From the NCBI RefSeq assembly GCF_001186125.1, contig NW_014040429.1, positions 71,714 to 114,834 of the forward strand: a DNA stretch of 43,121 nucleotides, written 5' to 3'. Position 1 is the stretch's first letter; each line of letters begins with the position of its first letter. The notes under the pieces were generated by a model. It was not told the DNA's origin, searched no databases, and was given only the letters and a program-made list of their open reading frames with translations. Position numbers and translations under genes: made by a program. Positions 18,674-43,117 of this stretch are shown one piece after another. Source of the DNA: Sphaeroforma arctica JP610. Taxonomy: Eukaryota.

Positions 18674-19333
18674 NNNNNNNNNNNNNNNNNNNNNNNNNNN
18701 NNNNNNNNNNNNNNNNNNNNNNNNNNNNNNNNNNNNNNNNNNNNNNNNNNNNNNNNNNNNNNNNNNNNNNNNNNNNNNNNNNNNNNNNNNNNNNNNNNNN
18801 NNNNNNNNNNNNNNNNNNNNNNNNNNNNNNNNNNNNNNNNNNNNNNNNNNNNNNNNNNNNNNNNNNNNNNNNNNNNNNNNNNNNNNNNNNNNNNNNNNNN
18901 NNNNNNNNNNNNNNNNNNNNNNNNNNNNNNNNNNNNNNNNNNNNNNNNNNNNNNNNNNNNNNNNNNNNNNNNNNNNNNNNNNNNNNNNNNNNNNNNNNNN
19001 NNNNNNNNNNNNNNNNNNNNNNNNNNNNNNNNNNNNNNNNNNNNNNNNNNNNNNNNNNNNNNNNNNNNNNNNNNNNNNNNNNNNNNNNNNNNNNNNNNNN
19101 NNNNNNNNNNNNNNNNNNNNNNNNNNNNNNNNNNNNNNNNNNNNNNNNNNNNNNNNNNNNNNNNNNNNNNNNNNNNNNNNNNNNNNNNNNNNNNNNNNNN
19201 NNNNNNNNNNNNNNNNNNNNNNNNNNNNNNNNNNNNNNNNNNNNNNNNNNNNNNNNNNNNNNNNNNNNNNNNNNNNNNNNNNNNNNNNNNNNNNNNNNNN
19301 NNNNNNNNNNNNNNNNNNNNNNNNNNNNNNNNN

Positions 19334-22690: not shown

Positions 22691-23373
22691 AATTGAATCA
22701 ATACATGTGCTTATAGATTAACATATATCATCCAAACCTCTTTATGGATAATTTACACTTTATTAGTTCGTTCAACGCTATAAATTGCAAATTCTAGGGT
22801 AGAAGCACTCTAAATACCATTATGCGGAATTTCCATCTCATGGCCATTTAATGCACCATTGGCCATAACCCTCATTAATACAGCTTCCGCCACCATAAGG
22901 ATGATCATGCACACTATTTATATGCTATAAATAAGTTTATGACCCTTAAAACACTACATTACTGCCATTCGAAGTACGATAATCGTATATTGCCGGTAGC
23001 AATACATAGTGAAGTATTGGTGCTATGGCCTAGCTTCAAAAACAATTATTGCTCAGAACTACTTGCTTAAAACATATGGAGTGATAAAACAAGGTTTTAC
23101 TTAATACCGTTTTTAAACAAGAACCTGCTATTCCAAGCTTTTGGACCCTAAGGCCCGGTTGATAGGCGATTTTTAGTTAAAACAACGCAATTTTGCGTAA
23201 CAAAGATACAGTAATGTGTCGTACAAAATTGAAAGCCGGATAGCTGAAATCAATCAAATTTCACCGACATGCTTTTAGCAACGATACTACGAGTTTTGAC
23301 CGAGTTCACCTTGGGCGTGATAACTAGAATGATACTTGTGTAGAAGCACAATTTCTAGGTGGCCTAGAACTAT

Positions 23374-23690
23374 CAATAATGGGCTATGTATAATTACACG
23401 ATAAAATGCCTCTTCGGCAATATTGTATTGTTTCCTTTAATAGTGCTCAGAAATCACATCGATGGCAATAGTCTGGCTTATAGATTTGTTTGTATTTAAG
23501 ACGAAGCACCTAATAAATTATTAGATGAGAAACACATATTATGGTCCGTCTAGAAGAATTAACAATAATGGGTTATATATAATTACACGATAAAATGCCT
23601 CTTTGACAATATTTTATTGTTTCCTTTTTATTACTGTTCAGAAACCACCTTGATGGCTGTAGTCTGGCTTATAGGTTTGTTTACATTTTT
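23374..23690. repeat. Diverged direct repeat, about 125 bp x2, period about 189 bp
   Basis: caataatgggctatgtataattacacgataaaatgcctc...gtctggcttatagatttgttt (23374-23495) versus caataatgggttatatataattacacgataaaatgcctc...gtctggcttataggtttgttt (23563-23685). Confidence 0.9.
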
Positions 23691-26600
23691 AATGAATTAT
23701 AAGATGGGCTCGTCTGTTTCTGAAAATCCTAATATTGAATCAATTATTTTCGTCTCATTTTTTTTCCAGTAGGAATAAATCGACAAGTATAGGCATACTG
23801 TAAAACTGTACATTTGTCCATAACTTGTCTATCCATGTGACTGTAGCGTACCTAGCTATAAGTCGCGATATAAAAGCTTAGTGACGTGCAAAGGAAATCA
23901 CCTTTTACTTTATGTATGCGATTAACGGCTTCACAGCATTTTATAGTATCCATCGGAATGTGCTATGACTACAGGACTAAAATATGCCACGAAGCCTTAA
24001 AAGCGGTCGAATACAGGGACAAAGATGCACCAATGAAATATTTCCCTGTGGACTGTGTGCTTCCAACAGCACTACATGTGAAGTATTTCCTGCACTCGTC
24101 TGCATGCAGTCTAGCACCACCCTTGATCGCGCTTAAACAATATGAGTGGTTGCACCTGTACAGATGGTAGATACGCACGATGCCTCTGCCCGAATCCCCG
24201 GTCTGGCGTTTATTGATAATAGCTACAAATTGCATTAGATATTGTAGGCGATGGTGGAGTGGATTTTGATTTATTTTATCGGCTTTCGATCCAGCCAATG
24301 TCTCTCAAAAACGCCACTCGCTTAAATGCGTCAAATTGAGGGCTGCCACCCTTTTCGCTAAGATTTCAACGCCTTTTCGACGATTTTATTGGTGCCCTCG
24401 GACACACTTTATCGAAAAGCTTGGAGGGTAGCCACTCGTATTGATAAAGTGCGCTAAGTTGGCTACAACTCTATTTTGATCATTTTGTTATCGTACGTTG
24501 CCAATATTTGAATATGATTGACTTACGAGCATCGTCTCATTGCCGGAATACCAACTTCGCACCGATCCAGCAAGCCGTCCATATATGGGTGCCTACAATC
24601 GTAAATAAACAAAGCCGATGGGCTTACTAGAGCAGGGTACCCTCCCGTGTCCGTGTGTGACTGAAGGGTGAAGGAAGGTGATACCAAAACATGCACCACC
24701 ACCCCCCTCCCCCCTCACAGCTAAACAAAAACCTTACTTCTATAGCTTTAAGTCTACTTACCTGAGTTTGATGCACACTTATTCTTATGAACACTTCTGT
24801 TCTGCTTTACTTTGCTATAACTACACGAGTCAGGTTACAGCTGCAGGTCGTTTAGTCGAGTGCAAGAATCACGTGGCCTTTAATGTGCTCAGGTGGTAGC
24901 TGGGGTGAAGTCAACAGTAAGCTTTTAGCAACTCTTCTACGTTGGATAGTGTCGCTGAGAAAATCGTGGAGGAATATAAAATGCATCTGTTTCGATGGGG
25001 CACACGGATGTTCGAGAAGTATATAATACTGGAGGATTTCTATAGATTCCGAGTGTCTAACCAGCTGCATAAGAGACTCCATTACATCCACGGGCGTCGT
25101 AAAACAGATGTAATACACTTACTGCGAAAGTCGAAAGATAGAAATACTTCGTCAACCAAAAAATTATTCACTGGTTTCCTATTTTGGCGTATGAGTGGTG
25201 ACAGTGTATTTTTGGATGATGACACAGTGTAAGTTCGCCTTGTTACATTTACAATGCACACTGCGAGACCCGCTCTAACTCGGCGCGCCCGAGGGCCAGG
25301 AGAGGAACAACCATCCTAAACTCCAAGCCGTAGCAAATGGAATACAGAAGTATAGCGCCACTCCCTAACAAGACAGCAACAAGCCATGAACCAACTACTC
25401 CATTCGGCAGACGGGATGTCCACAGGTTGCCATTGCATAATACTATGCTGGCCCGATGATGAAATGTCTACTCACCGCCCGCGCATCCTGTAAAAAGAAA
25501 GAGAAAATGATGGAGTGCCCGACCAGTTCAAAAGTTTCGGGCTATGTGCGGAATAATTTCACGTTGCGGTCTGCTTCCTGTACAAGTGTTTATTCGTCTA
25601 CTAGCGTTTCGGCTAATGCTTTCCGGCCAGGAGCAACCAATGAACGCGTCGAACATGTGAACGCGAGTGAGACAAGGTAACGTAAGTATAATTTTACAAT
25701 TTACTGGCTCGTACCCAAAAAGTGGTAGTGGTGACATTCCCATATGTCTGGATCACACGTAGATGACTGCTTTTTGTTTTTGTTTTTTGGTCAGAGATAC
25801 TGACAGTTTTGTGAGCTGGCCGCCGATAAAGTATGAACTTCGCCGTATACATGTTGAAGTGCAAAATAAATAACAAATAAATTAATATTTGCTTGTTTTT
25901 AGTTCTTTCAATCCATATAATTTGAAAATGAACGTGTATTTAAATTTTTAAATACAGAGAGGAACCAATTTATGTCATTTGGTCCTGATATTTTATAAAT
26001 GGCCAGACGCCGTATTTCTACATAGCCCCAGCAGCTTTTAGAACTACGAACAACCGTGAAAAAACGATCTAGTTTATAAAGTGAAACCCAAAGTAAAACG
26101 GTTTCGGTTATGTCCTACCTAGATAGGTTTGTGCCTGCATGTACGAGTTCAAGACTCACTCTTTTTTCGTTTAGTATTAGGTCCAGTAACCATTTTCGAT
26201 GTAGGCGCCATACTTTTTTTTATGTAAGATTAAGGGCAGGGGTTCTTCTTTATTAGTTGCAAAGTTTGAAGAAGATTCTTTACTTTGTTAAGCAGACCAG
26301 ATAGTTTTGCCACATATGAAGTAGGCGGCAAAGAAGGGATTCCAGATCTATCAGAGTCCGCAGCAACCTGAGGAATTCTCATCCTTTTATCTCATGTATT
26401 TGTATGAAACCACGTATTCCATTTCTTATAAAAGATTCAAAGGAAGTCGCAGGATTCACAAAAGACATGGGATGATACCCATGCTACTGTTCCACTCTTA
26501 AATATGGGGTTTGTAGTAAGTGTGACCGTATTCGGATGTTTTGCCAATAAAATCTTTGACATATGACTCCATAACAGGCACTTCAAAATCAAATGAGAGG

Positions 26601-27859
26601 GCAATTGAGATCTAGGATGTAGGCGTTAGTACCATCTATGTTATTAGCTTCGTAAGTACCACTTTCCTCATCGTGGTAGGAGATAAATAAATAAAATCTT
26701 TAGAACAGAGTTCTGTAACGTTGACGTTTCTGTTACTAGAGATAATGTAATCTTCAACTTAAACTGAACAATGTTCTTTGTATCATTCCAACGGTTTTTA
26801 GGCTTTTAGCAAGATGCGGTTTTTGCGCTTGAGTTAACAGGGGTAAACGAAGTTCTGCATATGAGTAATCTTTTGTCGCCACGGGGTAACGTGTTCCTCC
26901 GGCGCAGCTTTATAAAATGTTGCTTGTAATTTACTATAGCCGTCAAAGAAATAATGAAACGGGAGTGTTCCCGTTTGAAAATTCATGCATTTAATCATTT
27001 GAGTTTGAACCTATTTCAAATGATAAGGCCACATATCCTCATCGTCATATAGGACGGTACCCAAGAGTTTCTTACCTCACTACTGCGTATCTCATTAATA
27101 CCCTGCTTTTGATGTATATAAGGAACACCACGTCTATGGGCCATACCCATAAGTGCCTTCATTACATCGTTACAGAACTCGCTATCATTATCAGAGCATA
27201 GTACTCGGAGAAAATCGAAGTCATTAAAGACTTGATAGCATAACTTTGCAATTGTTTGCCGGCGTTTGCTCGGTATTGCAAAACGCATGTTGTAGCCCGA
27301 AGCCACACATAAGAAATGGTAGATATATACATCGCATTTCACAAATAGCCATCCCATAAGTATTCTCGTAAGCTCGATGAGCAAAGTTGTGAATGATCAT
27401 AACTTTACTTTCATGCTCTTCTAATGAGTATCACTGGTGGGGTGAACCATTTCCACGGTACTTAGGCAACTTCAGTATTAGTAGGAGTTATTTCCTGTGA
27501 TAAATAGTTATTAACGACAGATTGTTAAAAGTATCCTCTTTGGTTGTTTTGCATTTAAAAAGCACTTTAAGTGGTTGAGTGCAAGCTTTAGGGTTCGTAT
27601 AAAAATGAGTCCTACATCCACGGCCATAGCTAGTTTCATGTTTTTACGACCTATTGCCGTTTCCATCGGCACGACCTTGATTTCATTCTTGCTGAGTGCA
27701 TGTGTTGTGCAAGTCTGGAGTTTGTGATCAAACTGCTCAGACACTTTTAGTTTAGCATAGAATTGGGTTGAGCCTTTCCAACTTCATTTAATGATACCTG
27801 CAGGACCGATGCGACAAATATGGCGTGTTTCTATGGTGATCTCTTAATAGATTAGGATC

Positions 27860-28190
27860 CCTTATACAAAAGCGTGCCGGTTTCACGGTCGACATATATA
27901 GGTTTGTCTTGAACCATACCAATAAGCTCACGTATGCAAGGATCGGAGATATGTAAGGGACAGCACAGCGGTATGATAGATTTAGTTATTAACATAATTT
28001 AACAACTGGTATATTAGTTGCCATGATGGGTCTGCCCACAATTGTGTAGAGATTGGTCAAGCTGAAACGCATCACCCTTAGGGTGTGTCGGCGACATGTA
28101 TTCGGGTACTTGTTTATTTTGTTCAGCAGCAAACATATCAATAGTAAATCGACCCCAGCGTGACTCACCGAGCCGGAACCATTTCTTAAT
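27860..28190 (-). pseudogene. Degenerate DNA N6-adenine methyltransferase domain in retrotransposon pol (copy 2)
   Basis: KWFRLGESRWGRFTIDMFAAEQNKQVPEYMSPTHPKGDAFQLDQSLHN / (frameshift) WADPSWQLIYQLLNYV / LCCPLHISDPCIRELIGMVQDKPIYVDRETGTLLYKG. This aligns residue by residue with the domain at 38030-38434. Confidence 0.85.
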
Positions 28191-29100
28191 AAGCAATTGA
28201 CGTTGTGATTTTTTTTTTAAAAGTCAGGAACAAGTCGAAAGAGCATGTCAGAAAGATATTATATATTCCTGGTATGTTTGCTATATTAAAGGCAAACTTA
28301 GCAATTATGTCATGACAGCGACTCCATAACTGTGAATCATGGTTCATGCCTTCGAAGTAAGCTAAATCCTTTTGATCACAGGCGACATTGAAGTATCTTC
28401 CGTTTAGGTAGTCTTTGAACTGAGTAACTAAAACCCTTATTTAACGGTAGGGTAGGGTAGTTACGTTGACTTTGGTTATAGCTCTTACTATAATTGCTTG
28501 TAGTGTGGGTTACCATATACAGTTTGATATAGTACGTCCCTAACCGCTCGATCTGAAGCTTCGGCTGCTGCTTGAAATGGAATGCCGTCTACTGGGTATT
28601 GCATGATCGGTGCATCCATTACTTTAGCGTTATCCGAGAGATACTACCATCGTTATTTGTTGGGAGAAAGAATTCAAAATATGTAAGCTTTCAGGTACAC
28701 TTTTATATTGGTACTTATTGCCTTGCCACGCAAAGAGAAAGTACTTCCTACTTGGTTCGTAAATTGTAATTAATGAAATACAGCTTTCAAATCCATCTTG
28801 GAAAAGATAGGGATAATATTATTTATGTAGTATCTCACTTATTTTAGAAAAGGGAAAAATAAGTTGCGGTTTTAATTTATTAATTGAAAACAGGTCTAAC
28901 ACCACTCTTGTTTCACTGAACGTTCCATCAGATTTATTTTGATATACCGTTAAGAGCGCAAGGTTAACAGAGGTTGTATCGTATTTGATTTGAATTAGAC
29001 CATTTCATTATCCAGTCTTCAATTTGGGTCTTGACTCCATCTTTGTGTCGCCAACTTGCGTAGTTATAAGAAGGATACTTTAACTTAGATTCCTACAGAA

Positions 29101-29289
29101 ACTCTCCTACACCCCCCCCCCTTCCCTGCCGGAGTCCCTTCGGAAGTGGTGGAGGGTAGTAACTCTCCTACACTTCCTCTTTTGGCGGGAGTCCCTTACC
29201 TTTGGGAGTAGCATCGTGGGAGGGCAGCTTCCTACACTCTTTCGGAGTCGGGGAGGTAGTCCCTTCGGAAGTGGTGGAGGGTGGTAACT
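29101..29289. repeat. Three imperfect tandem units of about 60 bp (ctcctacac...gtcccttcggaagtggtggagggtagtaact)
   Basis: Units start at about 29101, 29162 and 29229. The related motif ggagtagcat recurs at about 32447 on the other side of the nested element. Confidence 0.75.
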
Positions 29290-31084
29290 GGTGTGGTCAA
29301 AACCAATTGACACTTAGTACAGAGTGCTAAGTCTGAAATAAGCCTTCTCTGCGGATGCCTGAGTGATAACGGAGCGGTTCGCCCCCGTGTTAATGAGCTG
29401 CGCATCGCATGTCCGTTTACTTGTAAAGTAAGATACACTCGGTTGTCGGTAGGGAACAATTTCTCTTTTACTGCAAATATTCTTGTCGCCGTACGACCAA
29501 ACGTCACGCACGGGTTCAACTCAGACACCCCAGCATCTCAATTCGAGCTTATCTCCTCTTCCCAATTGGCTGGCCCTTGCTCGGTCTCCATCAACTCATC
29601 TTCGCTGTCTACATATGACTTGTCGACCAAATCATGAATATGCATCACCTCACTCTCACCTACCTCCGCTGGCGTAGGATCAGGAATCTGATCATTCCCA
29701 TCCACTAGATTAACTCGAAGGCGGAAGTTATTACCCGGCGCCTGTTGTGTACGCGTGGATGTACCCACAGCTGATACACGGTGTAGTGGCGCACCCCCTA
29801 TGGTTGCTTTCTGTAACTTAGGACAGCGTGGTGCGTCCGCTGGGCCAGGAGGGAGATTCTGTTCACATGACCGACAACGAACCCGAGGGTTCGATGCTGG
29901 CAGTGCATGCGGGTTAGCTCGTGTGTTCGCCTCCACACGCACTCGTGGGCGTGAACGTGATCCCCCCGGAATCTGTAGCGGCCGAGAAAGATTTGCCCGA
30001 CGGTGGTCTTCTGTCTTGTCAATATTTACCCTAAATACATCACGCAATTGTGCAGCGGAGTATTCTCGCCAGTTCGGGTGCATACGAAGGGTATCGCGGG
30101 ATTATGCTCCCCCGCAGCTTGACTTATTAGGTTGAGCATACCATGATTGCGGTATACTTGTAGCGGATTCTCATATTGTCGCATCTCCATAAAGTCTACT
30201 TTGCGTTCAAAATTCCGAAGTTGTGTCTCCAGTGGCACCGAAGGGTTTAACTTCATGCAAGCCACCACATTTCTGTATGTGTTATCTTTCAGATCTTATT
30301 CGTATGTGCGTACAATATGAGCAGTGACGTCCTGAAACGACATGGACTGCAATTTTTGTTCGTTCTCCACGATAAAATCCAATAACGCCTTGGGAGCTCC
30401 TTTCTTTTTGAAGTGCCCTGTGTAGGCCCTTGAATCGGGTCTAATTTGTGAATTCAAAATGAACGCATGCAGCTGTATCTTCTGCGGGTTGTCCAAAAAA
30501 TAGCTTCCTTTAGCGTCCGTTTGTCTACCGTTATCGAGCATGTCTTCAACGTCTCATTAGATGTGCGAATTAAACCCTGCAACGAACGGGTGTCCTCTGT
30601 GTGCCCCTCAGATTCTGATTGCATCATACATTGGGTGAGATGGAATACCTGCGTTTTCATATCTGCCGCGGTAGATTCAATGATGCACGCCTCTGTAGGT
30701 GGTGATATCTTACATCGTTTCACATCCTGCGGGTCCTCTAGGTAGCGATCGTGGTGAACAGGGAAGTGTTTGCGATATGCAAGCGTATCGAGAGGTACAT
30801 TTGCATTATCCTGGCAGTTCTTCTTCCTCTCTTCTGGTGACTGTGGACGACGACGATGTTGTAACTTGTTCCGGAATAAATTCGCTGCTGCTTGACCGTG
30901 AATAGACTGTTGGTTGTCGTGGAGATTTCATCACTCTGCAAAATGCATCAAAGGACCGCTTCGCCGATGATGACAAATTTAATGGGGTAGCTGTAGCCAT
31001 GTCCAAATGTAAGTCCGCTGGGTCCAAAAAAATTCTACCAGGATATTTCACTACAGCTGACGACTCCTGATTACGATTAAAATC

Positions 31085-31312
31085 CCCAAAGTCGATTGGC
31101 GTCACTTCTGGTGTCGGAATTGCTTATGCTCGATTTTGAGCGTAGTTTAGCATCCGTCCTCTACGAGAAGCGTGGACATTGTCGTACGAAGCTAACTTCC
31201 CAAAATCGATTGGAATCTCCTCAGGTGTCGGAATTTCTTGTGCCCGATTTTGAGCGGTTTTCAACATTCGTTCTCTGCGAGTAACAGGTACATTATCGTA
31301 GGGAGCCACTCG
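31085..31312 (-). repeat. 114-bp (38-codon) diverged tandem repeat inside the nested gag
   Basis: cccaaagtcgattgg...ggtgtcggaattgcttatgctcgattttgagcg versus cccaaaatcgattgg...ggtgtcggaatttcttgtgcccgattttgagcg. The protein unit is YDNV...RR.RML..AQNRA..IPTPE..PIDFG. Confidence 0.85.
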
Positions 31313-31995
31313 AGGTACAGGCTTCGTGCGGCCAATTCTGTGTTTCACCTAAGTTGCTTCATGTTGTTAGTCCCACTGCCAGGTGACTGGTCGATTGGTG
31401 TCGACCCTGCCTGCGTTGGGTATTGAGGAGCCCAATGTTGTTGCACTGTTATCATCATCCACTGTCGCCTGGGTCGTATCATGGGGCGTAAACGTATCAA
31501 TATCCGCCAGTGACAATTCACGAAGTCGGCGGAGTTGCTCTTGAATGAGATGAATATTTTCCGTGGCCTCCTGCACATGCATCATCGTATCCAAGTGTCC
31601 TTCTTGATCAGAAATCCAGTTTGGGGATTGTCTAAGCTTACCCAAGGTTTTAATCGAGTATTGGGCCTCAGAAACCAAACTGGTCAATTCCAAATGAATT
31701 TCTGTCTTCTTGTCATCCTCAGGTGCCGGTTTCTTAGCAATTGTTGTCTCCACCTTGGTAACCGGCGAAGAGCTCTAAGCAACCCCCACCTTAGCACAGA
31801 CTAATGGTAACTGGCAAAAGCTCCAAGCGACCATTTCAGCAGCCGGTCACAAACTTGCTTACCCACCTTAGGCAACAGTTTAGTATTGGGTCCAGTCATT
31901 ATTGTAAATTAAAAAAACCTAAAATAAGTTGCTTCTTAGTTGATTGTCTTCAAAGAACGTATTATAATAAATAGAGTAGTTCGGTCACTTAAAAA

Positions 31996-32408
31996 TGTGG
32001 TCAAAACCAAGTGACACTTAGTAAAGATGTAGTGTGAAGTCTGAAATAAGTGAACTCAGTCAGGAGTACCGTTGTGATCGGCGCGTCTGCTGTATCTATT
32101 GTCACATTCCTGTGTGGAACGAGATTTCTTCTAACAACGGATAATTGTGAAAAAGTCCGTATCTATGGTTTTCGTCTGCTAGTTACTATTAATTATGATA
32201 ACACCCTATGAATCATCATTCGTCTCCAAGATACTAAATTATGATGATACTTTCTGAGTCATCATTCTCTCGCATTTGGTCCGGTCCCTTAGTCCGGTCC
32301 TGAAAGAATCTCTTTTAGATCTGGTCCTCTGGCCCGGTCTTAAAATCCTCATCTAGGTCCGGTCCTCTGGTCCGGTCCTAAACCTCCGTCCAGGGTAATT
32401 TGTCTACA
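31996..32408 (-). repeat. Putative 5' LTR of the nested element, with internal ggtccggtcc repeats
   Basis: TG...CA ends. Several ggtccggtcc(t)-like motifs at 32278-32380 and a duplicated ttatga...tcatcattc motif at 32193-32270. Confidence 0.55.
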
Positions 32409-35391
32409 TTGGTAACCCTCGTATTGAGGAGAGTAGCCCCCTCCAGGAGTAGCATGGAGGAGGATGCCACCATAGAATGTTTTTGAACGAGTGTATATGC
32501 TTATGTTCGACAAAGGTGCGTTGGTTAATTGCGGATTACCTTCTCTCTCTCTTCTCTTCTATCAGTTAAAAATAGATATTTGTAGTCGATGGCTTCTTCA
32601 GAAGTAAAAACTCTACCTTATCCAAAATGAAGTCAGTTCGCTCATTACTTACAGGAGCGTAGACTACACGAGTCAAGCAGAGCTGTGGTATTTTTTTCCT
32701 CCCCAGTAACTTATATTATACGCATTCAAATATTTATTCATCACCTTCGGTACATATTGTATTAAAGAAATTTATGGTCTTGTTTCAATCGGCATGTCCA
32801 TGCAATTATCGGTGTGCCATCTATTGATACTTCTGCAAGTAGAGCACTATTCATATAATGTCCGAAGATTGACTTGCCTGGAGCACACGTTTCTAGGTCG
32901 TGTCTACCAACCCATGTACCATTTCGTACAGTGAGATTGAAACACTTACAAGGTGCCCGCTGCTGCTGTTTTTTCTTATTAGAACCTGAAGTAGGCGAGG
33001 GAGTACTAGCTGCAGTGGAAGTTTGAGGGTTCTTCTGGATGTTGCTTATAGTACTCAGTACTCTGGTAGAAGCGTTAATATGTTTTTGAACTAATGTTTC
33101 AAAAACAGACCACGGCATGGACCTCAGGTGACCGTAAGTGATGATATCGTCGTTCACTTTTGTAAAGTGACTAGCCTCCATAGCAATAATATTAATAATT
33201 TCAAACAAAAAAAGATAAGTTACAATGTATGTATGTTATAATGTATGAACATATGGTATGGCTTTCATAGCCGTTGTAGTGGTTCGAGAAAGATTGATGG
33301 GAAGAAGTGGGCAGTAAATTCCCGTTTAAAGCTTGGGCCAAGTGAGTCGACGATGGAGGATATGCGCTGAGTCAATTCGGGCCGGTGCTGACAAAACACT
33401 GATACCATCGAATGTGCCCTGTATTCGCTTGCTGACCTACTAAGTAGCGTACCCACCTCCGTGGTACCGATTGGGTCTGCGGCGTGTAGGCCGTGGAATC
33501 CATATCAACAGATATTTGTCATTGTAAGTACGACCTTCTGATCATCTTACGGATCCTATGCATTACATGAGAAAGTGTACCTCGTTTGATGGGTTCGGTA
33601 GTGAACGACTTACGAGACGCGAGAAGTTCACGACCGCAATGTGCATCTGCAAAAAAAAAGGATTCAAGATACTTTCTCGTAGCTGTTTCCGGGGTAATAA
33701 CTTCCAGTTAGGTTAGCTTTCAGTATGGTGCGCTATTCAGTAGCCTCGCAACGCAAATGTACGAAAGCAATCTTCATTTGTTTATTTTTAAGGTTTGCAG
33801 TGGTTTAAATTTTCTCAAATGGTTTTGGTGTTTCCAGTGTACTCTCGTTGGTTGAGAAATTGGCCTCAGCATGAGAATACTCAAGCTGCTTAATGAAGCT
33901 TGATTTAGTGTGCACTCGCTGCATCCGCTCAGTGCTCTGTTACGGGGTAGCTTGCGTTAAGATCATGTGTCATTTTCCTTTATCGTTGTCGTATCAATGA
34001 GGTAGCGGATGTTTACCACATATTTAACTAGCACCTTGATATTTGTCCTATTGGTTGTTCGAGAGTTTTATATCTATTTGTAAGGGATTTATGTGCCATA
34101 AAGCAATTGAAAGGCCGGCCTTTAATACTCACGCCATACAACTCGTCAATACAATCATTACCATAGTCTTGTTTGACTATCTTCATTTCGGCGTCTACCA
34201 TCCTCTCGTCAAATTTATAGCTCGGTGCTGTACTGCAAGTGTCACGAGCTGTGCATGTAGTTGGTAAAAACTTTGCTGTGTAAACTTCGATGGATATTTC
34301 AATGTTTTAAACTAAGTTATATAAGCTAAGATACAATTTAAGTCAGTTAGGATTTAGCAGTGGTAGCTTGTGTAAGAATGGTCGGGACTGCCTCTTGGTA
34401 AGAGCCTTAATATCCTCGATCACACAGGACGTACCTCTAGCTGTTTTTTATTGAATAGTTTTCACTAGAAGTACTAAGTGTTCATGACCACATGTCTAAT
34501 TTATAGATAGACATAAGAACGTAAGTCAAGTTAATACATTAGCTAATATAAATATAGTTCCATCTGAAGAAAAGTTAAAAAAAGAAAAAGATTTATTGGA
34601 TTTTGGAGTTCAGCTGTAGATTGCACTCGTTGTTTGCTTCTAATTGTCGGGTCTACGTACACTTGCTTCAAACAACAGCAATCATCGACAGTGTGTGGAT
34701 TTTCTATGCGATATGGAACACATGACTGAAACAGAAGACAGCTCTTGTATCTCAAACAATTAGTCCATTTTTGTCCGATCCATTGGTACAGAAAACTGTC
34801 ACTGTTCTGCATCCATTTTTATCGTAGCCTACTCATTCCTGCGTGATATGTCAGATCTGAACACTATCTATGCACTGAAATAACACAATAGAAAAACAAA
34901 TAATTGTCCAGTGTTGATATGCTTACAATTTTTATTTTTTTTTGGCTAGGGGAAGTGGATCGTGGTCTGCCGTCCCCCATTTTGTCGGTTTGCAATCCTA
35001 GAGCTACATATACAAGGAACGCGAACGGATGTAATGGGAGTGGAAAGTACTTCCAAGAGACGAAATGACTGTTAGAGGGCATTTGGGTGTGCATCTAATG
35101 ACAATATTGGTATCTTTATTATCTAGGCCTCAGGCGTATGCTTATCGAAGCATATACTCTGTTCTTCTACGAACCAAAAGTTTGCTTAGCACTCGACAAG
35201 GTACAATCAATTGTATCTCTTGAAAATAATGTGGATTGCTGCTTTGTGCAGAGACGATACACATCCCATCACAGGTATCTTCACCGAGTCTATCTTTCAC
35301 TATAAGAATTCCAAACTTTTCCCTCAAAATCCTACCAATGAATCGTTGTTGTTAACTGTGTATATTCTAATTTGTATATTGTGTGTCTTGC

Positions 35392-35900
35392 TGTAAGATT
35401 CGGTCTATTAAGGCGATATTAACGCCTTAGAGTAAATATACGCGTGGGTAAATTCTAAGTATCGTGAAATTATCAAAGTAAATAAACGAAATGCGACTTT
35501 TAGTAAAGTTAGGTATGCCTCGTGAAAACAGCAATACTCTGAGGGATTGTGAGGCTGAGACATTGCCTATATATAATCCTCTCAGTACTGTTTCCGCCGA
35601 AGGGATTTTATTTAGTGTTTCGTTGTCGCTCTATTAGAAACTATTGTATGTTTCACTGGGGCGAATCCGAGAGACTCATAAAATCCTATCTTTAGAATAA
35701 AGAAATAAAAAAACAAAAAAACTCTTGACGTCCCTAGTTACTGTCTTAACCAATAACTTGCCACTATCTAGAATTACCGACTTAGCCTTCATCAGAATGG
35801 CACATCTGGTTGGCTTATCGGAGGATCAACTAGGTAACGTTAATAGTCCCTAGAAACCTATATTCGGTTGAACCATCTCGCTACCGAAGTATTCAGATAT
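35392..35900 (-). repeat. 3' LTR
   Basis: tgtaagattcggtc...ctaccgaagtattcagatat is collinear with 42637-43117. It may extend further right, because its partner is cut by the window end. Confidence 0.9.
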
Positions 35901-36046
35901 AAATAAATTTGAAAAGTAAATATAGTTCTATTAATAGAACTAGGCAAACTCTTATGTTTGGTATTTTACTGAGGCCTTTTAATGGCCTTGTCCTAATATC
36001 TGATATGTAAAATGGAAAAGGTTTAATTAATAAAACCATTAAAAAT

Positions 36047-36149
36047 CATTTTAGGAAACTTAAGTTCCTTGTGCTATTAAGAGTACATTTAGGAAGCTTA
36101 AGTTCCTCGTACTATTAAGAGTACATTTAGGAAACTTAAGTTCCTCGTG
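36047..36149. repeat. 38-bp tandem repeat running into the assembly gap
   Basis: Units catttaggaa(a/g)cttaagttcct(c/t)gt(g/a)ctattaagagta start at 36047, 36086 and 36124. Confidence 0.9.
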
Positions 36150-36479
36150 NNNNNNNNNNNNNNNNNNNNNNNNNNNNNNNNNNNNNNNNNNNNNNNNNNN
36201 NNNNNNNNNNNNNNNNNNNNNNNNNNNNNNNNNNNNNNNNNNNNNNNNNNNNNNNNNNNNNNNNNNNNNNNNNNNNNNNNNNNNNNNNNNNNNNNNNNNN
36301 NNNNNNNNNNNNNNNNNNNNNNNNNNNNNNNNNNNNNNNNNNNNNNNNNNNNNNNNNNNNNNNNNNNNNNNNNNNNNNNNNNNNNNNNNNNNNNNNNNNN
36401 NNNNNNNNNNNNNNNNNNNNNNNNNNNNNNNNNNNNNNNNNNNNNNNNNNNNNNNNNNNNNNNNNNNNNNNNNNNNNNN

Positions 36480-37600
36480 AGTATGTATAGCCTCCCTTAT
36501 CCGTTCTCCATATAATGTCTTTAAATTCAGCACGATCAAGAGGGGCATTAGAGTCATGTCTTCTTGCGAGTATAATCTATGTAGTCGGAATACGACTTGT
36601 GCCTATATTAAGCGCACTAGAACCATCGGGGTTATTTACCTCGTACGTTCCACTTTTAGTGTCTATTACAGATATTATATACGGACCTATCCTTTAGATG
36701 TTAACACAGTAGCATCGGAATTACGTTGACTGATGTTAACTCTGTCACCGACCTGATACTCTGCTATCTTCTTGGTAGTGTTCCAACGCTTTTGCCTTTT
36801 TAATGAGGCTATATTGCGTATTTTTCGCAAGCACGGATGTACAACGTTATAGATACGTTGTCCCTTCTCTAACCATGGTAACTCATGGTGATCAGGTTCG
36901 TCCTTGTTAAAGGGGATTTGTAACTCACTATATCTGCCACGAAAATAGTGAGTGGGTGTAGTTCCTGTAACCGGATCAGCACACTCGCTCATCTGTGTTT
37001 GTACTCACGTAAGGTGGAACGGCCAATCATCTGCATCATCCGTTAATGCAGTACTCAAGAAGAACGTAAGTCTTCTATGGCGCGTTTCATTCGCGCCTTG
37101 CGTTTGCGGCTTATATGGCACACCTCTCTTATGGCATATGCCTGATACGAGTACTAGCGATTCCATTACGTCATCGCAGAACTCACTACCGTTATCAGTG
37201 CACAGAATACCTGGCCACCTGTGGTCAGCAAAGACTTGGCAACATGATTCTGCCACGGTCTGCATATTCTTATCCTTAAATGGATAGAGCAAGTTAAACC
37301 GTGACGCCACATCAACGAAATGGCGTACGTAACGGTCGCTTGTGTGCTCGGACGTGGGCAGGTCAACCAGATCAAAAATGACCCTGCGCCATGGAACATC
37401 TTCAGTCACACTCTTAAGCGGGGCGAACCCATAGCGCTTGATCTGATTGAGATCACAGTCTGTACATGACTGATATATTCTGTCAACTAAAGTTGCCAGC
37501 TTAGGGTGCGCGATCCCATTTCGCTTAGCATCTTTAAGTGCATCTACTACGTTCTGGTGCTTCAGCTTATGGTTTTGCGTCAGCCAAGCAAGAATGTTTT
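36480..37600 (-). pseudogene. Retroviral-type DDE integrase with HHCC zinc finger and GPY module
   Basis: HKLKH...CTDC; PWRRVIFDLVDL; VDVASRF; TDNGSEF; PYKPQTQGANE; WPFHL; TGTTP; (R)IGPYII at about 36680. There is an in-frame TGA at 37005-37007, a frameshift at about 36690 and a TAG at 36577-36579. Confidence 0.95.
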
Positions 37601-38029
37601 CATCATTCTGCTCCTCCAGAGTAAAGGTAGGGTGTTGAGAATCCACTTGCGTGGTCTCTAAGTCTGTAGTGTTTCCAGACTCATATACTGCTTTCGCATG
37701 AGCGTCATAAGTGCGCTCAGATACACCTGACTTATTAAATAGTCGCATTATATGTGTATACGCTTCAGGATTGTCTTTCATTATTCCCTTTAGAAATAGG
37801 GGTTGAAAGACCTCGGGCTTGGACTTTATGTTATTAAACAAAGTCCTAGCTAGAGACTGATGCTTCTTAACAGTAGTGTCATTAGTATATTGTATTTCTT
37901 GTGCACAGACTTTAAGTGCTATGTTGCATTTGAACTGCTTAACGTTCAATTGGGCAGAGAGTGGAATCTCTGATTCTTTGACCTTGTTAAGGAAGGTCTC
38001 AGAAGGAGTCCATTTGGTTGTTCCAATGG

Positions 38030-38434
38030 GACCTATACGACATATTATAGTATGTCTCCAGGGCTTCTTCTGGACGGCTCGGGTACCCTGATATAGGAAA
38101 GTGTCTACTTCCCTATCTAAATATATTGGCTCGCATTGTATTATGCTTATTAATTTATTGAGCCATGGATCTTTACTCCGTAACGGGCAACACAACGTGA
38201 TGGTAGCTTTATGTATATGAACATAATTTAATAGCTGGGCAATTAACTGCCATGGTGGATTAGCCCACGCATTATGTTTGGAGAGGTCTATTTGAAAGGC
38301 GTCTCCCAGAGGATGATTAAAAGTCCTGTAATTCGATGTTGTGTATTATGATGTGCAGCAAACATATTTAAGGTATGTGACCCAAATATCTTTTGAGCCA
38401 GTTCAAACCACATGGGATTACATTTCCAGTCATT
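38030..38434 (-). pseudogene. DNA N6-adenine methyltransferase (Dam/DIRS-MT-like) domain within pol
   Basis: Hand translation across a 1-nt frameshift at about 38340 gives NDWKCNPMWFELAQKIFGSHTLNMFAAHHNTQ/TSNYRTFNHPLGDAFQIDLSKHNAWANPPWQLIAQLLNYVHIHKATITLCCPLRSKDPWLNKLISIIQCEPIYL. The catalytic NPPW motif is at 38250-38261. Confidence 0.92.
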
Positions 38435-38459
38435 GGCTAGTAACTCACGTACGGATTTA

Positions 38460-39760
38460 TTAAAGTCCGGTACGAAGCGTGATAACATATCCGGTAAATG
38501 GTTATGTATTCCTGGCAGATGTTTTATATCAAAATGAAACTTTAATATTGTATCATGCCAGCGACTCAGTAATTGCGAGTCGGGTTTCATCTCTTTCATA
38601 TATTGAAGAGATTTCTGATCACACATCAGCGTAAATGCTGTTCCGTATAAGTAATCTCGGAAGTGTGTTAGAGCTGCCACTATGGCTAATAGCTCTTGTT
38701 TGACAGTTGGATAATTCAACTGTGAAGCATTCATTGCTCGACTAAATAATTGTATATATCTAGGTTTGTTATTTATAACCTGATATAATACTCCTCCTAA
38801 GGCCAAGTCTGATGCGTCCGTTGCTATTTCAAACGGCACGCCATCGACTGGTCCTTGTACAACAGGGGCTTGCTGGACTGCGTGTTTGAGCGTTTTAAAT
38901 GCGTCATCACAATCTTTAGTCCACAAGTCTCCTAGTTTGCCTTTAAGACATCTTAAGTGTCCAAAAGGTTTAATGTAATCAGCCAAGTGTGGTACGCCAT
39001 CTGAAAAGAAGTTTACAAACCCACACATGCTGTTAACATCTCTTCCTGTAGTTTGTGTTCGCCAATCTAACAGGCGTTCTACCTTACCTGGGTCGATTTT
39101 AATACCTTCCCCAGATAATATTCGGTAGCCTAAGAGCTGTATTTCGCTCATGGCGAAGTGACATTTCTTCTCGTTAATCTTGAAGTTTTGCTCGTTGAGT
39201 CTCTTAAGGACTCGTCTGACTAATGTGGCGTGTTCGCCCTTAGTTTTAGGGTAGATGACTATGTCATCTATAGACTTGCACGCTTGGCATGTCTGCAAAC
39301 ATTTCCTCCATTACTTGTTGGAAGAATGCTGGTAAAGAGTGTAACCCGAAAGGTGCACCTCTGAACCTGTATTGTTTACCTTTCCCGGTAAAACTAAAGT
39401 ATTTACGATGTGGTTCATATACCTGCATTTGATGGTATCCTTGTGTAAGGTCTATAGTTGTAAATACTGAAGCACCTTCCATCCTTCACAGTAGCTCGTT
39501 AATACGAGGTAAGTGAAAGCTACGAGTCGGCAATAATATATTTATTGGACTCATATCTAAACATATTCTGACTTTCTTAAACGATCCGTCAGAGTTATGA
39601 TGGTCTACGGCTAGCAGTGCCAAGTTAACTGGCGTCTGTTGATAGTTAACTTCTATCACTCCATCTGCTAGCCATTTCTCAACTTGTTCTTTTACCACAG
39701 CCTCGTGTCTCCAGGATACATAGTTCCCTGAGGGACACTTTAACTGTGTAAAGTCCACAT
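38460..39760 (-). pseudogene. Reverse transcriptase and RNase H (Ty3/Gypsy type)
   Basis: RICLDMSPIN; LPRINELL; FTTIDLTQGYHQM; APFGL..LPAFFQ; V(YI)DDIVI broken by a frameshift at about 39270; KKCHF...LLGY; RNase H TDASDLALGGVL, NYPTVKQELLAIV, CDQKSL, NHLPDMLSR. Confidence 0.97.
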
Positions 39761-39959
39761 TGGTTAAGTCAAGGTTGACATATCCGTCGTTAAAACAGAA
39801 TTTTGCCCAATCTGTGATCTTTATCTTTTTATTAACTAGAATCAGATCCATGATTTTGTTCGCAAAGTCAGGTATTAATGCCTTGACTGTGTCTGACGGG
39901 GGCTTATATGGATTCAGACAGTTATCGCCTGACTGATCCTTTAATGGATCTATGTTATT

Positions 39960-40290
39960 TGGTAGACCAGTTACGGTTATACATAGAGTGAGTAAATCGC
40001 TCATTCCGACTATAATGTCGTACTTCTGTGACATCTTAACTATCACAGCTTGAGTATTGATACTCGTATCTTCGGCCAGGGAGATTTTAACATCTGTGGC
40101 GATGGTATCACATGTAGCAGTTTTATCATCAGCTAAAATGAGATGAGTTGTTTATGTTCTTCTTTCGATTTCTTTCATTAATGCAAAGCGATCGGATATA
40201 CATGAAATTTCTGAACCAGGATCAATCAACGCAAGGACTTTATTACCATTGCAATGTACAGGGATTATTACACGCTCATCTAAAGAGTCG
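39960..40290 (-). pseudogene. Retroviral-type aspartic protease
   Basis: ERVIIPVHCNGNKVLALIDPGSEISCIS (40195-40280) and YDIIVGMSDL (about 40010). There is an in-frame TAA at 40152-40154. Confidence 0.9.
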
Positions 40291-40328
40291 TTGTATTGTC
40301 TGTGTAATGATTGTACCTGGTAGTACCG

Positions 40329-42506
40329 TCACTCCAACTTAATGTTGGGCTTTCGGTCACAAGACTTAGTGTGATAACCATTGGTCTTCTCACACTTGTC
40401 ACACTTAGTAAGAAAGTGTGTACAGGTGGATACATGTCTACCATTCCAATAACCGTTAGGAGTTAACTGGTACATGTCATACCCACACTGGGCGTCGGCA
40501 CATGTCTTAATCTCCTTAAATGGAGGTTTCATGTCCTTCGCTCCTGCGCGTGCCCGTTTATTGGGTCGTGTTGTGAAAGTGGATTTGCGAGCATGTGTAT
40601 GTTGGGGTCTCTTGTTTGAGGTCTGCCTCGATACGTACCCGTGATCGGTGAGCTCCCGCGGCTTCTTAACAGCCGCTTTTCCTTTTGATGTTACTCGATG
40701 TGCGGGAAAAAGAGTGGATACAGTATCATAAAACTGTTCCCATGTAAGTCGGGATAGATAAAACTTTGTTTCATGTCTCTTGTCTCGAGCCTCAGTCGCG
40801 TGTTTACGTCGCAACTCGGTGTACAGACTCTCACGGTCGTTATTCCCTATGTTCTTACAGAACACGTGCATAACCAGGAATTCGTACCATCGCTGTGCCT
40901 TGTCCTTTGTTATATTGGGACGTTTCTGGTCAGCGTCTAACTTCAGAATATAACTCTGAATGGGTGTGTTCTCGGCTGGTTCATTTAAAATTGAACTCAG
41001 CCCAGGGCTACGCATATCCTTACTTAACAAGGATGTGACCAACCAACACACAGCTGGCCAGTCACGACAAGTGTCTAGCTCATGCTGGTGTCGCTGCAGG
41101 ATCAGATAACTGGTACCTGTAGGGTCAAATGTCTGCATTAAGGCAGAGATCCATTGCTGGGGAGCGATATCATTCGTCTCCAGCATGACCGTAAACGCAT
41201 TGAGCGTACAGGTTAGCGTGTTGAGGTCATGGTTGTTTATAAACTCGACCTGCTTACTGTTGACATCCCAGTTCGACTTAAGTCAACTGATCTGTCCTTT
41301 GTACTTCTGGTTATCCCTGTGGTCTTGTCCACGTTGAGCCTGAAGTAGCTGATCGATGCGCTTTTGCTTAATCGCAATAATATTCACATAGTATGCTACG
41401 TCATTAGCATGATGCGCAGCATGGGCGACTTCCATTTTATTGGTATAGTCGTCGACCGATTTATTAAGGTCGGTCACCTCGTCATAGTGGAAATCCTCTG
41501 CGGGTTGGTGTAAAGCCGTGCGGTCGAAGCGATTAAACTCGACATCGTTCACACGTCTGCGGGGATGATTAATATCCCTTGGCGTCAGAATAACGTACCC
41601 AGTCTTAACTGGTTTCCGACGATTGTCCTCCCAATTGGGTACAAGTGGAGGAGTATATTTCCTTACCTCTCGGTCTATAATACCTTTGAGAACAGGTGAC
41701 TCACGACCAGGTGTCAGAACAGGCGAATGACTAGCCTGTTCTTCTGGCAGTAATGTCTCGTACGGTATATCGACGCTGTGCATCTCTGGATTATATGACT
41801 CAGGTGTCAAGCTTGAGTCTTTGGGCGTAATTGCCTGTCAACGTTCTGTCCACTTATGTACGGCTTCAGTTATGCCCGGGGAATCATGCTCGCGTAAGCG
41901 CTGTGTATGTTTTCCTGATCTTTCTATTTGATCTACACGCTCGACAGTCAAGTCTTTCATAATAGTAGCTAACTGATTCTTAAGATCAGCGTATTTAGTA
42001 ATTAACTTACTTATGTGCTTCGGCTTAGAAGTCTCGGACGTAGATTCGGTTTTGCTACTTGAGCTTGCCTCTTCTTCTGGTTCCATATTAGGTTCCTTCT
42101 GAGATTTGTCCTTGTCCCCTATAATTGGGGACGCCCTCATAATTTGTGACTTTCCTTTCTGATTTTTGTCAGAAGAATGGGTTGAGGCGTCTTGCGACGT
42201 ATCCCTTGTCTCACTTCTTGGCTTCGTTAATGCAAGCTTTGAAGATGAGGCTATAGTTGGCCCTCGGTCTCTGTCAGAAGGAGTAGTCTTCTTAAGCGGA
42301 GTGGCTACTTCCTTATATGAAGCATTGTCCCTTTGACTATAATTGTCAGAGGCAAGTGCTTTGGCTGCAGTGCGCTTAATTGTATCAGCAGCTGCGTCGG
42401 TTGCTTGCGCAGCAGTAATAGCTGCGGCAGCGTTAGCGACTTCTCTCTCCATTATCTTCTTTTCAGCTCTACGTTTCTTAGAAGGAGTGTTGTTTTTCTT
42501 GGTCAT
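40329..42506 (-). pseudogene. gag-like ORF1 with C-terminal Cys/His knuckles
   Basis: ORFs 41838-42506, 41283-41810 and 40329-41186 share one frame and are separated only by TGA codons. The C-terminus reads CADAQC...GRHVSTC and CDKCEKTNGYHTKSC. Confidence 0.85.
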
Positions 42507-42636
42507 AATCTTAACTTATGACTACTAGCTTGTCTCTTAACAACTAGCTTAGACAAGAGAAAAAATGTTGTGGTAGTTAACTTACCTTTACGTTTAAGTA
42601 GTCTAAGTAATTAATACTTTAGATAACTTTAAAATG

Positions 42637-43117
42637 TGTAAGATTCGGTCTAATAAAGGCGATACTAATGCCTTAGAATAAATAAACGCGTAGGTAAATT
42701 CTATATATCGTGTAAATATCGATATAAATAAACGAAATGAGACGTTTAATAAAATTAGGTTTGCCTCGTTATAACAGCAATACTCTGAGGGATTGTGAGG
42801 CTGAGACATTGCCTATATATAATCCTCTCAGTACTGTTTCCGCCGAAGGGATTTTATTTAGTGTTTTGTTGTCGCTCTATTCTGGGGCGAATCCGATAGA
42901 CTCATAAAATCCTATCTTTAGAAAGAAAAAAAAAATACTCTTAATGTCCTTAGTTATTGTCTTAACCAATAACTTGCCACTTTTCAAGAATTCCCGCCTT
43001 GGCCTTCATCAGACTGGCACATCTGGTTGGCTGATCGGAGGATCAACTAGGTAACGTTAATAGTCCCTAGAAACCTATATTCGGTTGAGCCATCTCGCTA
43101 CCGAAGTATACAGATAT
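42637..43117 (-). repeat. 5' LTR (probably truncated by the window end)
   Basis: tgtaagattcggtc...ctaccgaagtatacagatat is a direct repeat of 35392-35900. Confidence 0.9.

Follow-up and report, generated by a model that had tools for sequence, protein, structure and literature searches.

The window considered here, a stretch of 43,121 nucleotides from the ichthyosporean Sphaeroforma arctica JP610 (contig NW_014040429.1), contains two dead retrotransposon copies which very probably belong to one old family of the Ty3/gypsy type. The pol region of this family encodes protease (PR), reverse transcriptase (RT), RNase H (RH), a Dam-like methyltransferase domain and integrase (IN) in this order, with the Dam-like domain predicted to place N6-methyladenine (6mA) on the replication intermediate of the element. 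The same very probable reading places the family in the ichthyosporean lineage of the “DAM-LTRs”, a name given to long terminal repeat (LTR) retrotransposons outside the DIRS group which contain Dam domains and which the accessible text of a recent preprint reports as a first (Fernandez-Moreno et al., bioRxiv 10.64898/2026.05.21.726589, May 2026). As the domain order is common to two diverged copies, the fusion with the Dam-like domain appears to have been inherited within the family.

The older copy is a Ty3/gypsy-type pol fragment on the minus strand at 26155-29089, truncated at its 5' end and internally deleted. In a tblastn comparison it is colinear, from 29089 down to 26155, with residues 197-1397 of P0001 (E 2e-42, 1e-59 and 7e-106), an intact relative from a public assembly, and its domains follow the order of the younger copy, which bears out the original prediction that a second copy with an RH-methyltransferase-IN architecture exists in the window. 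The interval predicted for this copy, 27016-28580, does contain the element but falls short of its true extent, which is about twice as long. The reading frame is broken into 12 frame segments with 17 in-frame stops, and the stretches matching P0001 residues 345-485 (the RT core) and 933-994 are missing. No LTR, gag or protease of the old copy was found by blastn self-comparison and by tblastn with the frames of the younger copy.

What is left of the old copy starts with the N-terminal part of RT (28648-29089; P0001 residues 197-344, 60-78% identity), followed by RH (28296-28628; residues 486-601) with the motif DAPIMQYPVDG at 28584-28616, upstream of the Dam-like motifs. The Dam-like domain itself covers 27796-28196 and is followed by a poorly conserved linker (27514-27795, 25% identity to the younger copy) and by the integrase at 26155-27439, which comprises the rest of the zinc finger, the DDE core with the motif CSDNDSEF (27175-27198), the C-terminal region and a tail (residues 901-1397, E 7e-106). 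Pfam matches on the single pieces are weak and all below the gathering scores, namely Dam (PF05869) with E 0.0034 and 17.5 bits, rve with E 0.0015 on 27016-27396 and RT_RNaseH with E 0.0023 on 28186-28440. The Dam stretch alone, compared with P0001, yields 75 identities in 127 positions (E 2e-45), and the domain is interrupted by two in-frame stops as well as two frame changes. By three-frame translation its motifs were located as TIDMFAA at 28125-28145, GDAFQLD at 28056-28076, WADPSW at 28021-28038 (in a frame different from that of the two preceding motifs), LCCPL at 27954-27968 and IYVDRE at 27882-27899, with ICRIGPAG as a further motif of the domain; the motifs quoted in the original prediction, from RNase H through TIDMFAA, GDAFQLD, WADPSW and LCCPL to the integrase, are thus all read on the minus strand.

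The younger copy lies at 35392-43117, also on the minus strand, and combines the domain order of the old copy with direct LTRs. The 3' LTR (35392-35900) and the 5' LTR (42637-43117, its start cut by the end of the window) both end in ...TTACA and align with each other in 441 of 511 columns, or 92% when gap columns are left out. Upstream of pol, three open frames without a Pfam family match make up the presumed gag (40329-42515). They are followed by protease, RT and RH at 38434-40280, which match P0001 residues 20-637 at 58-67% as well as Pfam RVT_1 and RT_RNaseH and contain one frame change near 39271. The Dam-like domain, identified by tblastn and motif location, occupies 38016-38433 with the motifs TLNMFAA, GDAFQID, WANPPW, LCCPL and IYLDRE and a frame change near 38330-38341. 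The linker and the integrase, C-terminal part included, extend over 36481-38015 (Pfam rve E 6e-7), with the HHCC finger around 37452-37508 and the DDE core motif CTDNGSEF at 37179-37202. This copy is dead too, with three frame changes, four in-frame stops and an N in place of the conserved D in TLNMFAA (38354-38374). In contigs of other genomic copies two of the frame-change sites have another length and one of the stops has another letter, so these defects are private to the younger copy. An assembly gap (36150-36479) lies inside the element, between the C-terminus of the integrase and the 3' LTR.

In-frame stops occur at two common aligned positions in both dead copies, 37005-37007 with 27011-27013 and 36577-36579 with 26612-26614, where chance would lead to an expectation of about 0.07 (4 and 17 stops over about 1000 aligned codons). 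The first corresponds to residue 1105 (W) of P0001 and is TGA in one copy and TAG in the other, a change from TGG to a stop which is easily hit twice and which reads otherwise in other genomic copies. The second, at residue 1248 (E), is TAG in both copies and is unexplained. Four parts of the old copy, at 26856-27069, 27177-27390, 27819-27925 and 28889-28995, are matched at 90-95% by very deep short contigs (about 10^4, compared with 33-62 for single-copy contigs), which shows that related copies are abundant in the same genome. Next to the old copy, at 29100-33300, the minus strand holds open frames at 29541-30101, 30457-30927, 30809-31123, 31370-31774 and 32765-33235 which have no Pfam match and lie in DNA richer in G+C (0.49). 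One of them contains the motif NGTWVGRHDLETC (13 residues, 32885-32923), whose resemblance to the presumed gag of the younger copy is too weak to count (E 0.029 in a two-sequence comparison). These frames could represent a diverged gag of the old element or else belong to another element.

On the level of nucleotides hardly any similarity is left between the two copies. A sensitive blastn comparison returned no more than two short matches, of which the first (189 nt, 69%) lies inside the Dam domain (38180-38367 against 27953-28138) and the second (91 nt, 72.5%) at the end of RH (38502-38590 against 28259-28347), and the codon-aligned nucleotide identity is 52% overall. The proteins still align, as had been noticed before. 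Counted in P0001 coordinates, the protein identity between the old and the younger copy is 41% for RT, 53% for RH, 50% for the Dam domain and 50% for the IN core, compared with 25% for the linker between Dam and IN. The corresponding values for P0001 and P0002, a second intact relative, are 62%, 70%, 67% and 58% with 33% for the linker, and those for P0001 and P0006 from Abeoforma are 43%, 40%, 41% and 34% with 12% for the linker.

The proportion of nonsynonymous differences between the two window copies (pN, by the method of Nei and Gojobori) points in the same direction, the sound part of this test being the comparison between domains: pN is 0.315 for the Dam domain (bootstrap 0.257-0.377), 0.315 for the IN core, 0.324 for RH and 0.361 for RT, and it rises to 0.560 (bootstrap 0.455-0.659) in the linker. 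The proportion of synonymous differences (pS) is saturated at 0.72-0.91, with 0.84 for the Dam domain; pN/pS is 0.37 for the Dam domain versus 0.77 for the linker, and the identity of the Dam domain at codon positions 1, 2 and 3 is 0.60, 0.71 and 0.41. Conservation of the Dam domain is on the level of that of RT, RH and the IN core, and it drops in the linker which follows. Retention of the methyltransferase domain through the divergence of subfamilies, and the selection which this implies, had been proposed from the two sequences and is supported by the domain identities, by the pN pattern and, as described below, by the congruent trees and by the evidence against a chimera. Two subfamilies whose DNA hardly aligns both keep the Dam domain under a constraint like that on RT and integrase, which makes the window a clean example within a single genome.

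Both intact relatives were found in public assemblies by a search with the Dam-integrase frame of the younger copy. P0001 has 1400 aa and P0002 has 1376 aa, and each encodes PR-RT-RH-Dam-IN in a single open reading frame (ORF) as judged by Pfam (PR, RVT_1, RNase H, Dam, H2C2 and rve). The rve match of P0001 reaches 36.5 bits and is above the cutoff, its H2C2 match is only sub-threshold, and the H..H..C..C motif and the D, D and E motifs of the integrase were located. A further single-ORF relative is 1426 aa long. A profile-free scan covering 1.84 billion representative proteins returned 5654 matches at E ≤ 1e-3, of which 438 remained at E ≤ 1e-10 and only 10 at E ≤ 1e-30. When 28 of the top matches were examined with Pfam, Dam was found in 18 (15 of them above the gathering score, with up to 53.8 bits and with 43.5 bits for Abeoforma P0006) and Dam together with rve in 14; a hidden Markov model built for this analysis recognised it in 31 of 151 collected proteins. 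Two relatives, P0040 and P0068, show RT-RH-Dam with no integrase seen. Chromodomains are present in the DAM-LTR relatives P0014, P0016, P0021 and P0028, and Pfam found no Chromo match at E ≤ 1 in P0001 and P0002 and none in the frames of the window.

The closest named relatives are four proteins of S. arctica JP610 itself and three of Abeoforma whisleri (P0006, P0004 and P0068). SARC_07241 of S. arctica is 82% identical to the integrase of the younger copy, and a single continuous alignment between Abeoforma P0006 and the younger copy (E 1.5e-43) extends from Dam to integrase. Each sequencing run contains between 1839 and 3858 short contigs which are at least 90% like the RH-Dam-IN stretch of the younger copy, and the bins covering Dam are as deep as those covering RH and IN. 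Summed contig depth is not the same as copy number; read as a pattern along the element, it fits a high-copy family whose members generally carry the Dam domain.

Quick maximum-likelihood trees, with support taken from the Shimodaira-Hasegawa-like approximate likelihood ratio test only and with the rows returned by one search, were calculated for RT-RH, Dam and IN. The RT-RH tree combines the younger copy with 17 carriers of Dam and with the 14 non-carriers that ranked best, and it contains a clade of 12 rows with a support of 98 which unites the window family with P0010, Abeoforma P0006, P0011, P0013, P0022, P0040, P0019, P0020 and P0012. In the Dam tree a clade of 16 rows with matching membership has a support of 98, and the IN clade comprises 14 rows with a support of 97. 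The domain is carried by 11 of the 12 rows of the RT-RH clade, with P0012 as the exception, and by 13 of the 14 rows of the IN clade. The window family has a support of 99-100 in all three trees, which also recover a common Sphaeroforma-type subclade. P0001 is the partner of the old copy (support 97 in the Dam tree and 92 in the IN tree) and the younger copy groups with P0002 (83 in the IN tree), and the two copies therefore represent two subfamilies. The congruence of methyltransferase and RT trees, which the original prediction had named as a point of comparison, is found here: the RT, Dam and IN trees are congruent and show no sign of separate captures inside the clade. In the RT and IN trees P0012 (1023 aa) is placed within the clade of Dam carriers, but it has only about 67 residues between RNase H and the integrase zinc finger and no Dam domain, which looks like a secondary loss.

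Within the Dam-like domain, the D of the hTIDxFA motif is present in all 24 relatives which cover that column in an alignment of 26 relatives, and the old copy has kept it (TIDMFAA). The younger copy has N instead (TLNMFAA), a difference which had been noticed from the letters of the window and which is read in both copies. The (N/D)-P-P-(W/F/Y) motif appears as WANPPW in the younger copy and in P0002. As the window copies are broken, the fold was modelled on P0002: the AlphaFold2 model of its Dam domain (155 residues, 21-row alignment) reached a mean predicted local distance difference test score of 92.8 and has the class-I methyltransferase (Rossmann-type) fold. The best match of this model in the PDB according to Foldseek is PCIF1/CAPAM (E 2e-4, TM 0.64), followed by KsgA/Dim1. 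With VIA-align, run against 48,161 chains, PCIF1 was again the top match (Z 10.5, root-mean-square deviation 2.8, 135 residues aligned), and the next were DIMT1 (Z 8.5), ErmE (8.3), KsgA (8.2), T4 Dam (7.7), E. coli Dam (7.6) and M.TaqI (7.4). The leading neighbours are without exception SAM-dependent adenine-N6 methyltransferases. The sequence of the Dam part of P0002 gave no match to PDB sequences at E ≤ 10. The modelled fold is that of adenine-N6 methyltransferases, and the substrate is not fixed by this fold.

A mechanism for the use of such a domain has been put forward in the preprint (10.64898/2026.05.21.726589), in which, as far as its accessible text goes, the domain marks RNA-DNA intermediates or recruits AMT1 and the insertions stay in permissive chromatin. 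Applied to the window family, the Dam-like domain would, after translation, methylate adenines of the cDNA made by RT or of the RNA-DNA hybrid; or else the domain would bring in AMT1, which writes 6mA in the host. By either route, the new insertion would come to sit in 6mA-marked, transcriptionally permissive chromatin.

The view that both copies stem from one DAM-LTR family with a 6mA-depositing domain has to be weighed against a number of observations. The catalytic function of the domain is unproven and predicted only, and the accessible text of the preprint (10.64898/2026.05.21.726589) states that DAM domains of DIRS elements, DAM-LTRs and adintoviruses gave no rise in 6mA in dam-deficient E. 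coli. The gathering score of PF05869, 28.1 bits, is reached neither by the old piece (17.5) nor by P0001 (22.9) or P0002 (26.2), and no Dam match at E ≤ 0.01 was obtained with Pfam on the frames of the younger copy. The younger copy has replaced the otherwise invariant D by N, the (N/D)-P-P-(W/F/Y) motif of the old copy is degenerate (D-P-S-W in WADPSW), and the first residue of N-P-P-W/F is N in 19 of the 26 relatives, C in P0001, H in one and F in five. The top structural neighbour, PCIF1/CAPAM, acts on RNA and not on DNA. As for constraint, a numerical ratio of nonsynonymous to synonymous substitution rates (dN/dS) was given up in view of the saturation at synonymous sites and of two window copies which are both dead; neutral decay since insertion raises pN, and codon alignment via protein similarity lowers it everywhere. 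There is no clear primer-binding site (PBS) or polypurine tract (PPT) beside the LTR ends of the younger copy, whose 5' LTR starts at or beyond the window end so that no target-site duplication is readable, and the old copy has no definable LTR, PBS, PPT or target-site duplication.

That the RH-Dam-IN order is an artefact, caused by a DIRS fragment nested in a gypsy element, by an assembly chimera or by two independent captures, might be considered on the grounds that DIRS elements carry a like domain behind RNase H and that several independent transfers from DIRS to LTR elements across eukaryotes are proposed in the part of the preprint that is accessible. Such an origin is extremely improbable in the light of two diverged copies in one window with one order, of relatives with single ORFs of 1400, 1376 and 1426 aa, of the congruent trees and of the absence of any tyrosine recombinase match by Pfam in the window frames, P0001, P0002 and the top relatives scanned. 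In addition, one contig of 2638 nt spans 27013-29200, and with it the old RH-Dam-IN stretch, with zero differences in three runs (X1, X7 and X5) from three studies, and a contig of 7662 nt covers 26000-27041. A run from another organism (X17) contributed a single small piece on the old copy, which speaks neither for presence nor for absence there. Together with the single-ORF relatives, these independent contigs argue that the RH-Dam-IN order is no chimera, as the original prediction had maintained against a one-off nested insertion or an assembly error. With the congruent trees added, a nested DIRS insertion and an assembly chimera are ruled out for the window.

Other readings concern the function of the domain. 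It might be a non-catalytic module, acting either as a structural spacer between RNase H and integrase or as a pseudo-enzyme whose binding partner is nucleic acid or a host factor, for instance AMT1. The intact P0001 has a C at the catalytic N/D position of (N/D)PP(W/F/Y), at residue 694 (WACPPW), and 7 of the 26 relatives are without N; H or F stands there in P0016, P0028, P0034, P0037, P0057 and P0094, of which at least two, P0016 and P0028, carry a chromodomain. These substitutions hint that catalysis may not have been kept everywhere. The domain is also short (about 140 aa) and can be aligned with bacterial Dam only from TR-2 to CD-2 according to the preprint, whose heterologous assays, as far as they are described in its accessible text, were negative. 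A non-catalytic module is nevertheless rather unlikely, given N-P-P-W/F in 19 of the 26 relatives, the D of hTIDxFA wherever that column is covered, a confident model with the full Rossmann-type sheet of adenine-N6 methyltransferases and the higher 6mA levels which the preprint finds on DAM-LTR insertions. The domain could also be an adenine-N6 methyltransferase for RNA or RNA-DNA hybrids rather than a Dam for double-stranded DNA, marking the transcript or the first-strand intermediate. This is consistent with the rank of PCIF1/CAPAM, which writes m6Am in the mRNA cap and stands 2 Z units above the rRNA adenine methyltransferases, with DNA Dams lower and with fewer residues aligned; it also agrees with the position of the domain directly behind RNase H in pol and with the missing 6mA gain on E. 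coli DNA in the preprint. Sequence profiles, on the other hand, put the domain into the Dam family of Pfam, a family of DNA methyltransferases, a common fold does not fix the substrate, and the accessible text of the preprint ties these elements to 6mA in DNA, all of which makes an RNA or hybrid enzyme unlikely. The two ideas can be combined in a PCIF1-like adenine-N6 methyltransferase that acts on element RNA or on the hybrid made by RT and has turned into a non-catalytic recruiter in some sublineages, those in which the motif begins with C, F or H. Such a combination would explain the negative E. coli assays and can be put forward only tentatively, as improbable on present evidence. The interpretation as a family of DAM-LTRs with a predicted 6mA-depositing domain is preferred.

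The surroundings of the two elements are those of eukaryotic DNA, with N gaps, TG/TA microsatellites and about 42% G+C. Host genes were found on the plus strand, namely a Mob1/phocein exon (500-829) and a multi-exon strawberry-notch homologue (7150-10735; AAA_34, Helicase_C_4), one exon of which, at 8558-8872, shares 96% identity with S. arctica SARC_02779 and 88% with a protein of Creolimax, as befits a Sphaeroforma-type ichthyosporean host. At 1961-2376 a unit of 208 nt is perfectly duplicated in tandem (two copies, 100% identical), and imperfect tandem duplications are present at 23366-23688 (period about 190 nt, 82-90% identity) and at 31085-31306 (108 nt, 77%). The assembly gaps at 5665-6510 and 18674-19333 are both flanked by TG/TA microsatellites.

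Among known systems, the best solved structural neighbour of the modelled domain is PCIF1/CAPAM (PDB 6irw, 6irx), an enzyme with an NPPF motif. It differs from the domain in that it works on RNA in the cell, has additional domains and is about 480 residues long, and the sequence identity is 12-15%; the likeness is therefore one of fold, not of family. Retrotransposons with captured C5-cytosine DNA methyltransferases were reportedly described by de Mendoza and colleagues in 2018 from dinoflagellates and charophytes. They resemble the window elements in having a DNA-modifying domain in or next to pol, whereas the domain in the window is of the adenine-N6 type. The DIRS1 group of retrotransposons is said, after Goodwin and Poulter in 2001, to combine RT, RH and a methyltransferase-like domain with a tyrosine recombinase. 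With this group the window elements share a Dam-like domain directly behind RNase H and the motifs hTIDxFA ... DAF ... NPPW; in contrast to it, they possess a protease, direct LTRs and an integrase of the DDE type that includes an HHCC finger, and no tyrosine recombinase was found with Pfam. DIRS elements are named as the source of the Dam-like domain in the accessible text of the preprint (10.64898/2026.05.21.726589).

In the literature searched, no description of Dam domains in integrase-bearing LTR elements was found beyond the 2026 preprint, the 2018 work on cytosine methyltransferases being different. The ichthyosporean DAM-LTR lineage is described there, as far as the accessible text goes, from Pirum gemmata, A. 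whisleri and S. arctica as having a conventional Ty3/gypsy organisation without a chromodomain, and the DAM-LTRs of S. arctica and A. whisleri have more 6mA-methylated insertions and a higher expression than other LTR elements (10.64898/2026.05.21.726589). The window copies correspond to this lineage in being Ty3/gypsy-like, in the missing chromodomain, in the Dam-like domain between RT/RNase H and integrase and in the clades which they share with elements of Sphaeroforma and Abeoforma in all three trees. Measured against the accessible part of the preprint there is no essential difference, and the copies are dead members of two subfamilies. The Dam-LTR architecture is thus already published for this host group, and the window does not contain a new kind of system. 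What the present analysis adds to the main text of the preprint, the supplements of which may cover some of it, is the constraint per domain, the congruence of RT, Dam and IN inside the clade, a member without the domain (P0012), the substitutions that affect the first residue of N-P-P-W and the top rank of PCIF1 among the structural neighbours. Retrotransposons with an adenine methyltransferase-like domain of their own suggest that mobile elements may exploit 6mA-marked permissive chromatin and not only evade silencing, and the result from the window speaks for the idea, already published, that the element benefits from the domain.

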